NCBI GenBank assembly: GCA_048882045.1 | Contig: JBHLRZ010000001.1 | Coordinates: 1-64,000, forward strand | DNA: 64,000 nucleotides | Reading direction: 5' to 3' | DNA from: Candidatus Thorarchaeota archaeon | GTDB lineage: Archaea; Asgardarchaeota; Thorarchaeia; Thorarchaeales; Thorarchaeaceae | Shown: positions 33,176-53,741 of the stretch, piece by piece | Numbering within the stretch: the first letter of the stretch is position 1 | Layout: every line of letters starts with the position of its first letter | Made by a program: the position numbers and the translations under genes | The notes under the pieces: generated by a model | Told to the model about the DNA's origin: nothing | Seen by the model: only the letters and a program-made list of their open reading frames with translations | Databases searched by the model: none

Positions 33176-34120
33176 ATGGCTAGACCAGTGCGTGCCAACC
33201 AGCAGCATCAGAAGGGCTTGGCAGTCTGTTCTGTTTGCGGTGGCAGTGATTTTTATGAAGACTTGACACGCGGCGAACACATTTGCACTTCATGCGGATG
33301 TGTATTGAACGAACGACTCCTAGACACAGGACCAGAGTGGAGGGCTTTCACAGCTGAAGAGAGAAATGCTAGAGCCAGAACTGGTTCTCCTATGACATTG
33401 ACAATGGCGGACAAAGGTCTTGCCACTACAATTGGCTGGAGCGATAGAGATGCGAATGGTCGTGCGATTGCTGCAAGCAGTCGTGCTGCGATCTACCGAA
33501 TGAGGAAATGGCAGATCAGAACATTAGTGCACAGCTCCCAGCACAGGAACCTCAGCATTGCTATGAGTGAGATGGACAGATTGACATCCCAACTTGGTGT
33601 CCCACATGAAACCAAGGAAACCTCAGCACTCATCTATCGAAAGGCTCTATCAAGGCGCCTCGTCAGAGGTAGGAGCATCGAGGGCATGGTGGCTGCAACC
33701 ATCTATCTATCATGCCGAATCCACAAGATTCCACGACAACTCGATGAGATAGTCACAGAGGCAAGGGTCAACAGGAAAGAGCTTGGACAGTGTGTCCGAC
33801 TCATTCTCCGCAATGTTGACGTCAAGGTGCCAATTCCTTCAGCAAACGACCTTATGCCAAGGATCTCTGCAGACCTTGGACTTGATGGAAAGACTGTCCA
33901 GACCGCGATGAACATCATCAACGATGCTAGAGAGAGAGGCATCACAGCTGGTAAAGATCCAGGTGGTCTTGCAGCCGCAGCCCTCTACATCGCAGGCATC
34001 ATCGAGGACGATAGAAGGACTCAGAGAGAGATTGCTGAGGCTTCTAATGTTACAGAAGTGACTGTTCGAAACAGGTATAAAGACCTGGCAAACAGCCTTC
34101 AGATTACAATCAAACCATAG
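33176..34120 (+). CDS. tfb: Transcription initiation factor IIB (TFB)
   Basis: Zn ribbon CSVC..CTSC, GPEWRAF B-reader, two cyclin repeats, TEVTVRNRYK. Confidence 0.95.
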   Translation: MARPVRANQQHQKGLAVCSVCGGSDFYEDLTRGEHICTSCGCVLNERLLDTGPEWRAFTAEERNARARTGSPMTLTMADKGLATTIGWSDRDANGRAIAASSRAAIYRMRKWQIRTLVHSSQHRNLSIAMSEMDRLTSQLGVPHETKETSALIYRKALSRRLVRGRSIEGMVAATIYLSCRIHKIPRQLDEIVTEARVNRKELGQCVRLILRNVDVKVPIPSANDLMPRISADLGLDGKTVQTAMNIINDARERGITAGKDPGGLAAAALYIAGIIEDDRRTQREIAEASNVTEVTVRNRYKDLANSLQITIKP

Positions 34121-34158
34121 TGGTTGGGATTTCTCCCAACTACTCCTTTCCTATTTTT
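34119..34158 (+). terminator. Hairpin plus pyrimidine/T tract after tfb
   Basis: agtggttggga/tcccaactact stem followed by cctttcctattttt. Confidence 0.55.
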
Positions 34159-34299
34159 CCATTAGATTCATTTGTGTAGAAAACTGACATCCTTAGGATT
34201 CAAATGAACAAGCTCATTCTCGCACTCTGTGGTTTCCCTATAGAGAGTGTGAGTGACATACTTCTCGATAGATTGAGAGAGTTATTTTGAGGAGATTTA

Positions 34300-34563
34300 A
34301 TGACAGACCTGTATCTAGAAGACTATGGGTCCAAAGAAAAGGAAGATATCTGTTGGCAAACAATAGGTGTTCTCTGTGTGGTCATAATTGGGTTTGTCTT
34401 GTTCTATATGGTCTATACATCACTCTGGGAGCTGATGCTTCCAGCAATTTCAGATCGTGGTCTTGAACTAACAAGTCTAGGATTGATTTTTGGAGTAATA
34501 TTAGTAGTCTATATTGTCAGAAGCAAGTCACTAGAGAAAAGGAAGATAATGGCGGCTTCCTAA
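34300..34563 (+). CDS. Small 2-TM membrane protein
   Basis: GAGGAG SD, two hydrophobic segments; last codons overlap the 3' end of the tRNA-Sec antisense. Confidence 0.6.
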   Translation: MTDLYLEDYGSKEKEDICWQTIGVLCVVIIGFVLFYMVYTSLWELMLPAISDRGLELTSLGLIFGVILVVYIVRSKSLEKRKIMAAS

Positions 34564-34640
34564 GAGAATCGAACTCTCAACGCTTGCACCTTCACGGGTT
34601 TGAAGTCCGTGGGACCAGACCACCGTTCCTGTAGAAGGCC
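34550..34640 (-). tRNA. selC: tRNA-Sec (anticodon UCA), 9/4 fold, probably degenerating
   Basis: GGCCTTCTA-CA-GGAACGG TGGT CTGGTCC-CACGGA CTTCAAA CCCGTG-AAGGT GCAA GCGTT-G-AGAG TTCGATT CTCT-TAGGAAGCC-GCCA: 9-bp acceptor, 7-bp D stem with 4-nt loop, long variable arm, 4-bp T stem, G discriminator, encoded CCA. Confidence 0.92.
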
Positions 34641-34666
34641 AGGACTATCTGTGAAAGGGAACTAAT

Positions 34667-35314
34667 CTAAATGTAACGACCAATAATGTTCTGAGTTTCC
34701 CGTTTCCATTCTATACTCTTCTTAGCGAGTTCAGAAGCGATATTTCCAGGCATTGTTTCATCACGAGGAAGTGATTCGATTTTCGATAGCCATGCTGCAG
34801 TTGTGAGTGTGGTTGACGGGATACTCTCCTCACCCTCGGTTGCTTTGATTATCATCTCCCTCCCATGTGCCACCTGAACATAGACATCGTTCACAGGGGC
34901 TTTAGCGAGAATTTCTTTGATAACTCTGTCCCAACAGGTCTTTGCAACCAGTGCTTTCTTGAGTTTGGATCTGTCATTCTCAGATAATGCCTGATACTTT
35001 GAGAGTGTAGCATCCATTGCTTGGATGTGATCATCAACATAGACTGAGAGTGCGACCTCATCATGTCCCATTGCTGTTAGTTCAACAGCAGCCTGTGCTT
35101 TTGTCACTTGAATCGCAGCATGTGCTTCTTCACCTGCAATTCTGAGGGAAAACTTTGCAGACCCGTGGAAATCCTGACTCTCTGCCTCACTATGTTCTTC
35201 TAAAATCAGATTGGGTTTGGATGCAACAACATACCAAGCCAGTCTGAAAACAATGTCAGGATCAACGCTGCTGTAGTTGAGTTTGCGAGAGACCTCGGTC
35301 ATTTCTTCATTCAT
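34667..35314 (-). CDS. Hypothetical protein inside the Sec locus
   Basis: Intact 215-aa ORF, GGGAGGG SD; no recognised motif. Confidence 0.7.
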   Translation of the reverse strand: MNEEMTEVSRKLNYSSVDPDIVFRLAWYVVASKPNLILEEHSEAESQDFHGSAKFSLRIAGEEAHAAIQVTKAQAAVELTAMGHDEVALSVYVDDHIQAMDATLSKYQALSENDRSKLKKALVAKTCWDRVIKEILAKAPVNDVYVQVAHGREMIIKATEGEESIPSTTLTTAAWLSKIESLPRDETMPGNIASELAKKSIEWKRETQNIIGRYI

Positions 35315-35346
35315 TCGACTTGCCCTCCCTCAAGGGTTCCCCTAGT

Positions 35347-35430
35347 CTACTTACTGGCCTCCTTATAGAGTTTAGTTGTGGCTGTCTCCACATCGTTTTT
35401 TGAGGCGCCAATGGCTGCATTCATAACAAT
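35347..35430 (-). pseudogene. spcS: C-terminal remnant of O-phosphoseryl-tRNA(Sec) selenium transferase (SepSecS) fused to the selB fragment
   Basis: IVMNAAIGASKNDVETATTKLYKEASK* resembles the SepSecS C-terminal (Y)IVMNAAIG-x4-D-[VI]-x5-KL motif as recalled from methanococcal/eukaryotic enzymes; not SelB-like. Confidence 0.7.
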
Positions 35431-35740
35431 GTGTTCTCCAGTTTGGACCATTGGACCTTCATCTGCTGCAATAACAATGATTGCTCCATCAATAATGTTG
35501 GCACCAGCAACGACACTCCTGATAAGATCAGCGTGTCCTGGAGCGTCAACTAGAGTGACTGGAATCCGTCAAGTTCCAAAATTGTAAAGCCAAGATAGAT
35601 GGTAATTCCCCGTTTCTTGGCTTGAGGGTGTTTGTCCAGTCCAGCGGTTGAAACTTTCTTGCGCATTGCTTTTGCTAAGGCGTTTTACCATGGTCAATGT
35701 GACTCATGAGCCCAACATGCACTGGAACGAGACTACCCAT
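35425..35740 (-). pseudogene. selB: Selenocysteine-specific elongation factor SelB/eEFSec, N-terminal G-domain fragment with two frameshifts
   Basis: Reconstructed: MGSLVPVHVGLMSHIDHGKT/ALAKAMRKKVSTAGLDKHPQAKKRGITIYLGFTILELDGF/VTLVDAPGHADLIRSVVAGANIIDGAIIVIAADEGPMVQTGEHIV; ends before NKxD. Confidence 0.9.
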
Positions 35741-35825
35741 TTCTGAACTTCAAATGTGGCTGGTGGAATTGAACATAAAACCAGTGTCAGAGGACTTTAT
35801 TGGGACGATTGCTGAATCAAAGGCT

Positions 35826-36251
35826 ATGGTATCACGGTCGTTAGAGAAGATGTTGCTTATTGCAATAGGTCTCTCGACAGCAGTCATTATTGGTGTTCCA
35901 GTCTTGTTGTATGCTATTGAAACGATAAACACGACCACTCAGTTGCAGGAAGCACAATTGGCAGCAGAACTGATTCATAATGCCACAAACACAGTAGATA
36001 CTGGAATCTCCAATTCAACTGCAATCACCATTTGGATCCCCAGAGGAGCGGTTGTATCAGCTGTGGGGAACACTCTTACAGTATCTTTCGCAGAAATAAC
36101 AGAATCATGGACTGAAACATACAATCATGAAATATCAGTTGATGACCCTCCGTTTAATCCTGAAGGCCAATTACTCTATACGATAGAAGTTGTCATGATT
36201 GGAGATGTCATTCACATCGCCTTTGACGCAGTCCCAACATACCGTACTTGA
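35826..36251 (+). CDS. Archaeal pilin-like / class III signal peptide protein
   Basis: MVSR|SLE followed by a hydrophobic helix, then a small beta-rich domain with N-x-T sites. Confidence 0.5.
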   Translation: MVSRSLEKMLLIAIGLSTAVIIGVPVLLYAIETINTTTQLQEAQLAAELIHNATNTVDTGISNSTAITIWIPRGAVVSAVGNTLTVSFAEITESWTETYNHEISVDDPPFNPEGQLLYTIEVVMIGDVIHIAFDAVPTYRT

Positions 36252-36325
36252 ACTCGATGGAGCACAACGTTTTTAATCTAGGCTCAGGTTCTCGCGCCAA
36301 CAGCACCCAGCGAGGACTGAATTCA

Positions 36326-50958: not shown

Positions 50959-51182
50959 CCTTTTAGTCTCCAGTCTAGGACAATTCCTTCGTGACGTACT
51001 TTTTACGCTTTTGGTGAATCAGTCATGGTGGCTTATTTGACAATGTAGGATATTCTCTATCACAAGCGTATTCTCGTTTGAAAATGAAATATCGTGAAGA
51101 GATTCTGACCGTTATTCTCAACCTTTATTACCAATACTGATTGAAGCTCGCAAGTTGTGTTCTGCTGAACGAGGACCCCTAT

Positions 51183-53741
51183 ATGACCTCAAGTGACCCC
51201 AAAGGACAGGCTGAATCAGCCGAAATCGAGGTAGTGTCTACTGATTCCGAACTACGTATCGGTGTGTTTCCTTGTATGTGTGGTAAGAACATCGGTGCAG
51301 TTGTTGACATAGAAGCTGTGGCCGAGTACGCACGGACACTCCCAGGAGTCGTATTTGTTCAGGTGAATCGTTACACCTGTGCTGACCCTGGTCAACGAGA
51401 AATAGAGGATGCAATCAAAGAGTATGGTCTCAATCGAATAGTAGTTGCATCATGCAGTCCAACTATGCATGAAGACACCTTCCGAAAGGCAGTGAGATCA
51501 GCGGGACTCAACCCATATCTATGTATCATGGCAAACATCCGTGAACATGTTTCATGGGTACATCGAGAAGATCCTGTTGCTGCAACAGAGAAGGCGAAGG
51601 ATTTAGTTGCCATGTCTGTAGCTAAGGCTGCAACACTAGAAGCGCAGAAGGAGCTGGATGTTCCAGTGACTCAAGCTGCGCTAGTTGTAGGAGCTGGTGT
51701 TGCAGGTATGCAAGCAGCTCTTGACTTGGCGGATTCTGGATTCAAAGTCAACTTGGTTGAAAGAGAACCCACGATAGGCGGCATAATGGCGATACTGGAC
51801 AAAGTGTTTCCACAGAATGACTGTTCCATCTGTATCCTAGGACCTAAAATGGTAGATGTGGCCAAGCATCCAAATATCAATCTGATAACATTGGCTGAGG
51901 TCGAGTCCATTTCAGGATATGTAGGAAACTTCGACGTCAGAGTGAAGCAACGGGCGCGTTATGTAGATATCGACAAGTGTACAGCATGCGGGGATTGTGT
52001 CGAGGTTTGTCCAGTGGATGTTCCCAGTAGGACTGATCAGAGTCTGACTTGGCAGAAAGCGATCCAAATCCCATTTCCACAAGCTGTCCCATCATCTTAC
52101 TTCATTGATCATGATTCTTGTCTTGGAATGGACCTGATTAGATGCGGAAAGTGCATCGACAGGTGCGAACAGGAAGCGATTGTGTCGTCGGACACTGCAC
52201 GCTACATCGATTTCGAAGTTGGTGTCATCATTCTGGCAACAGGATTCCATCCTGCTAGTCCAGAGAAGATACCACGCCTTGGATGGGGCAGATATCCCAA
52301 CGTCATCACCTCGCTCGAGTTTGAACGTCTGATCAACGCTGCAGGACCTACTGAAGGAAAGCTTGTGAGACCCTCAGACCTGGCAAAGCCACAATCTGTA
52401 GCAATTGCTCAGTGTGTCGGGTCACGCAGCATAGACACGCGAATCAATTGCTCGAATTTCTGTTGTGCGGAGTCGATTAAGTGTGCACTTCTCATTAAGG
52501 AACACTATCCTGACACTGAAGTCACAATATACTATCAGGATCTGAGGATGCATGGCAAGTATTTTGAAGAACAGTATCTCAAGGCCCGAGAAGAGGGGAT
52601 CAAATTTGTTCGGGGTCGTGTTGGAGAGATACAACAATATCCCAAGACAAAGAACCTGAGAGTGAGTGTAGAAGACACGACTCACAACAAGTTAGAGATG
52701 CTTGAGTACGACATGGTAATTCTGTCTATGGGTGCTGAAGGCCAGTCAGGGAACTTCCCTATACCGATATCCTGCACCTCAGACTCATTCTACATTGAGT
52801 CACATCCCAAACTGAGACCCGTTGATACGAGCTCAGCAGGAGTGTTCATTTGCGGAGGAGCTGAAAGTCCCAAGGACATTCGTGACTCGGTCATTCAGGC
52901 GAGTGCTGCGGCAGGACGCGCTGCGATTATTCTACAGAAGGGCAGATATCCCATCGAAGCACTCAGCGCTCGTATCATGCAAGACAAATGCAATCGTTGT
53001 GGTACATGTGTGAAGCGATGTCCGTACGGTGCTATCTCACAGGATGGTACAGGTAAGTACACAGTGACAGGGGCTCTCTGTCAAGCATGCGGCACATGTG
53101 CTGGAGACTGTCCACAAGATGCCATTTACATGCCCAATTTCACAACCCAACAGATTGAGGCTCAGATAGAGATCGCTCTTGCTGAGAATCCTGAAAAGAA
53201 GATAGTGGCCTTCGCATGCAACTACTGTTCCTACCGGGGATCTGACCTCGCAGGTGTTTCAAGGATGCAGTATCCTACCAATGCTCGAGTCATACGAACG
53301 ATTTGTTCAGGGAGGTATTCTACCAAGTTCGCTCAGAAGGCCTTCGAGCTGGGTGCTGGTGCTGTGCTCTATTCAGGTTGTCACCTTCCAGCAGACTGTC
53401 ACTTTCAAACGGGAAACCATTGGATGGCCAAGCGAGAGCCACGGATTAGAGGTTGGATGAAGCGGAATAACATTGATGATGAACGATTTAGAGTTGAGTG
53501 GGTTTCTGCAAGTGAGGGAAAGAAGTGGCAGGGCATCATGACAGAGTTGGCGACTGTAGTTGAGAAACAAGAGATGAGTAAGCCTAAGCCAAAGAAGCCG
53601 ATTACAAAATCCAAGAAGAAGACACAACCAAAAACGAAGGAAAAGCCGAAGAAAAAGACAGCAACTAAAGCGAAAAAGACGACGAAGGCAAGGAGTGTTG
53701 GTGTTAAGAAGACGAGTACGACTAAGAAAGGAGGGAAGTGA
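51183..53741 (+). CDS. hdrA: Heterodisulfide reductase subunit A fused to MvhD, with Lys-rich tail
   Basis: CMCGKNI, CSP..HE..FR, GAGVAG, DKVFPQNDCSIC, QCVGSR, ESHPKLRP, PKDI; MvhD part FACNYCSY..D, CSGR, GCH..DCHF. Confidence 0.93.
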   Translation: MTSSDPKGQAESAEIEVVSTDSELRIGVFPCMCGKNIGAVVDIEAVAEYARTLPGVVFVQVNRYTCADPGQREIEDAIKEYGLNRIVVASCSPTMHEDTFRKAVRSAGLNPYLCIMANIREHVSWVHREDPVAATEKAKDLVAMSVAKAATLEAQKELDVPVTQAALVVGAGVAGMQAALDLADSGFKVNLVEREPTIGGIMAILDKVFPQNDCSICILGPKMVDVAKHPNINLITLAEVESISGYVGNFDVRVKQRARYVDIDKCTACGDCVEVCPVDVPSRTDQSLTWQKAIQIPFPQAVPSSYFIDHDSCLGMDLIRCGKCIDRCEQEAIVSSDTARYIDFEVGVIILATGFHPASPEKIPRLGWGRYPNVITSLEFERLINAAGPTEGKLVRPSDLAKPQSVAIAQCVGSRSIDTRINCSNFCCAESIKCALLIKEHYPDTEVTIYYQDLRMHGKYFEEQYLKAREEGIKFVRGRVGEIQQYPKTKNLRVSVEDTTHNKLEMLEYDMVILSMGAEGQSGNFPIPISCTSDSFYIESHPKLRPVDTSSAGVFICGGAESPKDIRDSVIQASAAAGRAAIILQKGRYPIEALSARIMQDKCNRCGTCVKRCPYGAISQDGTGKYTVTGALCQACGTCAGDCPQDAIYMPNFTTQQIEAQIEIALAENPEKKIVAFACNYCSYRGSDLAGVSRMQYPTNARVIRTICSGRYSTKFAQKAFELGAGAVLYSGCHLPADCHFQTGNHWMAKREPRIRGWMKRNNIDDERFRVEWVSASEGKKWQGIMTELATVVEKQEMSKPKPKKPITKSKKKTQPKTKEKPKKKTATKAKKTTKARSVGVKKTSTTKKGGK

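Follow-up and report, generated by a model that had tools for sequence, protein, structure and literature searches.

The window, by which we mean the whole stretch of 64,000 nucleotides that was analyzed (contig JBHLRZ010000001.1 of the Candidatus Thorarchaeota assembly GCA_048882045.1, genome G000 in our comparisons), carries an archaeal-type tRNA-Sec on its minus strand at 34640..34550, with a UCA anticodon, a 9/4 fold and a G73 discriminator. Its position is orthologous by synteny to that of intact Thorarchaeota tRNA-Sec copies: it lies 3' of the Sel_Asgard gene, which ends 26 nt upstream, and the same arrangement is found in the relatives. The features of the locus, in window coordinates, are as follows.

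34192..34239, plus strand: weak PSTK remnant, first ~16 codons
34550..34640, minus strand: tRNA-Sec(UCA) relic, 87-nt body plus discriminator G and encoded CCA, 91 nt in total
34637/34557, minus strand: C4.A84, pair 4 of the acceptor stem
34626/34615, minus strand: A15.G26, middle pair of the D stem
34606/34598, minus strand: A35.C43, pair of the anticodon stem that closes the loop
34590/34581, minus strand: G51.G60, variable arm
34667..35314, minus strand: Sel_Asgard (NCBIfam NF045535, "putative selenocysteine system protein"), intact, 215 aa
35347..35424, minus strand: SepSecS scar, last 25 codons and stop codon, in frame with the selB stub
35425..35740, minus strand: selB pseudogene stub, first ~105 codons of the GTPase domain

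A tRNA-Sec cloverleaf with four broken pairs

Written out as a cloverleaf, the relic consists of a 9-bp acceptor stem, a 2-nt linker, a 7-bp D stem (positions 12-18 with 23-29) with the 4-nt loop UGGU, a 6-bp anticodon stem, a variable arm made of a 5-bp stem and a GCAA loop, and a 4-bp T stem. The UCA anticodon occupies tRNA positions 38-40 (window 34603-34601) within the 7-nt loop CUUCAAA, and the acceptor and T stems have the 9/4 (13 bp) geometry in the same register as in 29 relatives. A UCA anticodon, a G discriminator, the 9/4 fold, a 7-bp D stem with a 4-nt loop and a long variable arm are shared with known archaeal tRNA-Sec (RF01852; Methanococcales and Lokiarchaeota type); the defining features are as published (PMC4989117, PMC5330540) and recur on our alignment. 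Compared to the Lokiarchaeum gene, the relic has no T-loop intron and its CCA is encoded.

Exactly four pairs of this cloverleaf are non-standard: C4.A84, A15.G26 in the middle of the D stem, A35.C43 and G51.G60. No change has reached the T arm, any of the loops, the anticodon, G73 or the encoded CCA, and each of the four mismatches is a single substitution away from the sequence of the sister species G004, which has C15, G35, C51 and G84. A first-pass annotation, made from the letters of this DNA, had described a 9/4 Sec fold with a UCA anticodon, one mismatch in each of four arms, and the repairability of each by one substitution. We recovered the same four pairs and none besides, and all three descriptions stand.

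The fold was examined on an alignment of 31 orthologous sequences. Both sides change in 16 of the 31 pairs, and 97.8% of the cells are paired; by arm, two-sided changes in the relatives affect 6 of 9 acceptor pairs, 2 of 4 T pairs and 5 of 7 D pairs. None of 500 shuffles and no slid register came near the real pairing and covariation values, so the fold is not a chance resemblance.

Detector scores and predicted stability

Rfam RF01852 aligned the relic end to end with 46.0 bits (E 4.4e-8 in the 601-nt stretch searched), one bit short of the gathering score of 47 bits. The comparison with intact copies that the first-pass annotation had proposed placed the relic below all of them, as the 29 intact Thorarchaeota genes score 52.1-64.4 bits. 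A lineage covariance model, R1, trained solely on those 29 genes, gave the relic 86.3 bits and the tRNA-Sec copy of a second genome, G020, 76.4 bits, compared to 99.6-109.1 bits for the intact members tested. Rfam and R1 were also used to look for further selC copies, and neither found a second tRNA-Sec in the genome.

At gathering thresholds, neither ARAGORN nor Rfam calls an RNA gene in the window, and an E-value scan alone recovers the tRNA. ARAGORN called tRNA-SeC in all four intact copies tested (G004, G022, G001 and G003, with 0 to 2 mismatches), including G001 with two mismatches and G003 with an A.G mismatch; it called neither the relic nor the G020 copy.

The free energy of the relic cloverleaf is -23.6 kcal/mol, which is ~15 kcal/mol weaker than that of the sister G004 (-38.7 kcal/mol) and outside the range of the intact set (-31.4 to -50.7 kcal/mol). 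The minimum free energy (MFE) prediction for the relic is an unrelated fold and not the cloverleaf (z = 0.11). MFE folding also misses a few pairs in several intact relatives, however, and it is therefore not diagnostic by itself.

Comparison with 29 intact genes

From 60 related genomes we obtained 29 tRNA-Sec genes above the Rfam cut-off, all from genomes that bear SepSecS. Every one of them is 87 nt long, so the alignment is gap-free. Twenty have no mismatch, eight have one and a single gene has two, as compared to four in the relic. The sole other sub-threshold copy, that of G020, has five, and SepSecS is likewise missing from its genome.

Whether the same non-canonical pairs are conserved in Sec-positive relatives had been raised in the first-pass annotation, and the answer differs among the pairs. 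C4.A84, A35.C43 and G51.G60 occur in 0 of the 29 intact genes, an outcome in favor of the relaxed-selection inference, and none of these genes has a mismatch anywhere in the anticodon stem. On the other hand, A15.G26 is also present, as a single occurrence among the 29, in Sec-positive G003, which retains selB and SepSecS, and a mismatch in the middle of the D stem is found in 6 of the 29. That pair is therefore not evidence of decay.

At the level of single columns, G31, G35 and C51 are invariant in 29 of 29 intact genes, which span ten genera, and so is C43. Two further regularities emerge from these genes: the anticodon stem has a wobble pair, G31.U47, in all 29 without exception, and a GCAA tetraloop closes the variable arm in 26 of them. 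Judged from the alignment, G31.U47, the GCAA tetraloop and the D-stem mismatches are candidates for features that mark the identity of Thorarchaeota tRNA-Sec or show what it tolerates.

Substitutions on the G000 branch

In a tree computed from 1809 columns of seven flanking proteins, G000 is the sister of the Sec-positive G004 (SH-aLRT 99). The tRNA-Sec genes of G004, G016 and G022 are all identical to the genus consensus. Against G004, the relic carries eight substitutions: C15A, U28C, G31A, U32C, G35A, A46G, C51G and G84A. Four of them break pairs, and pairing is maintained or strengthened by the other four: U28C and G31A each make a Watson-Crick pair out of a G.U pair, and U32C and A46G jointly replace U-A by C-G, the same swap being present in four intact relatives. 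G31A, G35A and C51G fall in columns where the 29 intact genes show no variation. The seemingly harmless G31A thus abolishes a G.U wobble that every intact gene conserves.

With eight changes on the G000 branch and 0 on the G004 branch, the binomial p is 0.008; elsewhere in the 10-species clade, intact members have 0-2 substitutions. For the selB stub, counted at sites conserved in outgroups, there were 26 lineage-specific changes in 227 sites, as compared to 10 in the functional gene of G004. The proportion for the tRNA (8/87) does not differ from that of the stub (26/227; Fisher p = 0.69), which indicates that the tRNA is evolving like the adjoining pseudogene.

At 4-fold sites, K relative to G004 is about 1.0, far above the 0.09 changes per site of the tRNA. 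Neutrality over the full length of the branch would have left the tRNA much more diverged than it is. Either the loss is recent, therefore, or some constraint is left. We infer that the tRNA has been free of selection for about the final fifth of the branch, or for a shorter part of it, an estimate that assumes all eight changes to postdate the loss, although the structure-preserving ones may predate it.

Loss of the selenocysteine machinery

Gene order was compared in detail in five genomes (G022, G004, G023, G001 and G020). The order at Sec-positive loci is selB, SepSecS, Sel_Asgard, tRNA-Sec, with PSTK on the opposite strand and then a TFB-like gene. The profile scores of the relatives are 308 bits for selB (TIGR00475) and 472 bits for SepSecS (TIGR03531).

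What is left of selB in the window has two 1-nt deletions (at about 35681 and 35563), a G>S change in the P-loop and a G2 motif altered from GITID to GITIY. It was recognized by a TIGR00475 fragment match of 53.7-56.6 bits within a 73-aa open frame and by nucleotide alignment to intact selB genes. The SepSecS scar, which continues the stub in frame, matches the C-termini of SepSecS in G004, G002, G022 and G009. The two meet at an ATATTGT microhomology, and blastn blocks against G004 put the deletion at ~2.3 kb. On the other side of the tRNA, tblastn with the PSTK proteins of relatives detected the weak remnant of that gene (best E 4e-5 over 16 residues). The remainder, ~0.7 kb between the tRNA and the TFB-like gene in relatives, is deleted, and the spacer there is ~300 nt as compared to ~980 nt in G004.

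Genome-wide, in an assembly that is 93% complete, SepSecS (TIGR03531), PSTK (TIGR03574), full SelB and SelD all gave no match above cut-off. SelD-like matches of 87, 53 and 39 bits were considered and rejected; they are under the cut-off, the best has no N-terminal Cys/Sec motif, and they were assigned to other PurM-superfamily proteins. The selD genes of G004 and G002 have one in-frame TGA, in a THGUSCK motif, and hence encode a selenoprotein; selD is the one verified selenoprotein gene of G004. In G000 its two flanking genes adjoin (contig C9, 7299-7650; L084), which shows that selD was lost by deletion at its syntenic site. TGA terminates 40% of the long ORFs, more than any other stop codon, so it serves as an ordinary stop codon. 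Together with the deletions in situ, these absences support the earlier suggestion of relaxed selection after loss of SelB and SepSecS.

We also considered whether other selenoprotein genes had been converted. The HdrA-MvhD fusion at window 51141-53741 (plus strand) was rejected as a Sec-to-Cys conversion, as its orthologues in Sec-positive congeners likewise have no in-frame stop. An HdrA-like match in G004 with "2 TGA" looks more like the boundary of two adjacent genes than like Sec codons. Among the matches listed, the FlpD/MvhD domains of the genus contained no in-frame TGA. The large subunit of NiFe-hydrogenase (PF00374) was not found in the G000 genome, as compared to two in G004, and hydrogenase genes may have been lost along with Sec. 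A hydrogenase/Hdr cluster on contig C10 of G004 has no close counterpart in G000.

Independent contigs reproduce the locus

The source is a metagenome-assembled genome of 93 contigs, and Sec-positive Thorarchaeota relatives are present in the same samples, so one might suspect errors of sequencing, assembly or binning behind the mismatches and deletions. Four runs belonging to two studies yielded Logan contigs that match 34100-36300 with zero differences in tRNA, scar or stub, and one of the matching runs bears no flag as a possible source. The same samples yielded separate contigs with intact-type bases, for example G35 and G31; the co-resident relatives were thus resolved apart from this genome, and the deletion junction lies inside a long contig. 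We regard an artifact as so improbable that it can practically be set aside.

Over window 34534-34715, runs X1, X2, X5 and X6 contain contigs of other Thorarchaeota with an intact-type tRNA-Sec. Sec-positive and Sec-negative relatives therefore co-occur in the same sediment samples.

A graded series of decay in the genus

G020 falls in a different clade (support 99) from G000. Its tRNA-Sec copy, at L059:6001-6087 on the minus strand, has five mismatches and ten substitutions and scores 37.6 Rfam bits, and its genome has no SepSecS apart from a frameshifted tail. It is an independent and more advanced relic. The only substitution shared between the two relics is G35A, which in G020 is compensated by C43U.

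Three more genomes were searched next to Sel_Asgard with Rfam, nhmmer and model R1, and SepSecS is missing from all three. In G012 and G029, no remnant of the tRNA lies in the interval that separates Sel_Asgard from the next gene, and no relic was detected at the G064 locus. The Sel_Asgard of G012 is closest to that of G004. Across the genus, a tRNA-Sec above 52 bits is always accompanied by SepSecS, and SepSecS is absent with both sub-threshold copies. The genus thus presents a graded series in which the tRNA is intact, decaying (G000, then G020) or gone (G012 and G029). These patterns of gene content and relationship indicate that Sec has been lost at least three times, independently, in this genus.

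Sel_Asgard outlives the pathway

The Sel_Asgard protein of the window scores 211.9 bits against a cut-off of 132 and is similar in length to those of Sec-positive relatives (215-240 aa). The gene is intact in five genomes without SepSecS (G000, G020, G012, G029 and G064; also L059, L069, L070 and L071), which suggests a role beyond Sec. It thus outlives the Sec pathway and probably has another role. In G000, G020 and G012, three independent deletions each left in place the final ~20-45 codons of SepSecS, which lie close upstream of Sel_Asgard and perhaps carry expression signals for it. A comparison of upstream promoter regions showed a conserved CGTTACATTTAGATT motif that overlaps the Sel_Asgard stop codon, with a spacer about 20 nt shorter here. 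The AlphaFold model of the protein is confident (pLDDT 93), and a Foldseek search of it against the PDB returned nothing significant (best E 0.01, TM about 0.3).

Interpretation

It is observed that pairs are broken, that the breaks are specific to the lineage, that the partner genes were lost in situ and that the substitution rate is raised. The feature is very probably a selC (tRNA-Sec) pseudogene that came under relaxed selection after its partner genes were lost. With PSTK, SepSecS and SelD gone, the tRNA cannot be converted to Sec-tRNA, and with SelB gone it cannot be delivered. Moreover, the tRNA has been deleted in the Sec-minus G012 and G029 while Sel_Asgard was kept, so the relic is dispensable.

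The order of events was probably as follows. The ancestor of this species used selenocysteine, as most of the genus still does, from a locus with selB, SepSecS, Sel_Asgard and tRNA-Sec on one strand and PSTK on the other. A single microhomology-mediated deletion took most of selB and SepSecS, and further deletions removed PSTK and the Sec-containing selD. Left with no kinase, Sec synthase, selenium donor or elongation factor, the tRNA was free of selection and drifted, breaking one pair in each of four arms and altering otherwise invariant positions. The relic RNA is now probably functionless, surviving probably only for want of a deletion so far, 26 nt behind a gene that is still under selection.

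Several observations speak against the pseudogene reading. The T arm, the loops, the anticodon, G73 and CCA are untouched, half of the eight substitutions do no harm to pairing, the tRNA has diverged far less than the 4-fold sites, relics persist in two independent Sec-loss lineages, and functional relatives tolerate single mismatches, A15.G26 among them. One could imagine that the relic is still transcribed and kept for a job independent of Sec, either as a tRNA-like element for 3'-end processing or stability of the Sel_Asgard transcript or as a ligand of Sel_Asgard. Its position just downstream of an intact, conserved Sel_Asgard, a placement repeated in G000 and G020, would fit such a role, as would the unaltered T arm, loops, G73 and CCA and a divergence well under that of 4-fold sites; if true, co-transcription with Sel_Asgard and a selenium-independent role would account for relics in two Sec-loss lineages. 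However, G012 and G029 retain Sel_Asgard with no tRNA remnant, and none was detected at the G064 locus. The substitution rate equals that of the neighboring pseudogene, the cloverleaf has been destabilized by ~15 kcal/mol, the predicted MFE structure is a different fold, and the two relics share G35A alone, which gives no sign of convergence on a new structure. We consider this role unlikely.

It could also be speculated that the tRNA still functions, is serylated and weakly reads UGA as Ser or Sec, its mismatches being tolerated; a weak UGA reader, if the tRNA were still transcribed and serylated, had been suggested in the first-pass annotation. In favor of this, the relic still has its UCA anticodon, G73, long variable arm and CCA, and one or two mismatches are tolerated in functional relatives. 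The 13-bp acceptor/T helix of tRNA-Sec, however, keeps it off the general elongation factor, and SelB, PSTK, SepSecS and SelD are all gone. General suppression would be harmful where TGA is the commonest stop of long ORFs (40%). No intact copy has an anticodon-stem mismatch, and G35, C43, G31 and C51, invariant there, include positions changed here. Since no SelB is left and other Sec-minus relatives have deleted the tRNA, we do not retain this suggestion, which appears even less probable than a Sec-independent role. Decay of selC following loss of its partners remains the reading that we prefer.

Relation to known cases of selenocysteine loss

Compared to known archaeal tRNA-Sec, the relic differs in its four broken pairs, in a sub-cut-off score below those of 29 intact relatives and in having no partner enzymes. 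It is a well-resolved archaeal case of a known kind of gene decay; it is not a new kind of RNA and reveals no new mechanism.

The closest parallels come from animals. Among insects (D. willistoni, B. mori and T. castaneum), a pstk pseudogene has been described together with retention of SecP43 and SPS1, and selenoprotein-less species with divergent tRNA-Sec predictions are on record; the same study found mostly clean deletions (PMC2500217). Plant-parasitic nematodes have lost Sec and retained SecP43 (PMC4114682). Common to the insect (PMC2500217) and nematode (PMC4114682) cases is repeated, independent loss of Sec under relaxed constraint. They resemble the present case in that tRNA-Sec, EFsec, SecS and pstk are deleted or, rarely, left as pseudogenes, and in that accessory genes outlast them, SecP43 and SPS1 in the animals and Sel_Asgard in the present genus. 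In contrast to them, the present case is archaeal (Asgard), and a compact cluster holds the relic tRNA, the selB stub, the SepSecS scar and the PSTK remnant side by side. A sister species, moreover, permits the changes to be polarized base by base.

According to a survey of Asgard archaea (PMC11227280), 77.4% of Thorarchaeia use Sec, and loss in several lineages was suggested. SelD is the commonest selenoprotein in that survey, as in G004. In those of its passages that we searched, Sec loss was deduced from presence and absence, with no mention of pseudogenes. Compared to that treatment, the loss of Sec is documented here locus by locus, with at least three independent losses within a single genus and successive stages of decay.

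Recurrent loss of the 21st amino acid is known, and fossils of its dedicated tRNA are rarely caught. This genus amounts to a natural mutagenesis experiment on tRNA-Sec, with the constrained positions G31.U47, G35-C43 and C51-G60 invariant in functional copies and a Sec-positive sister species that lets every change be polarized.
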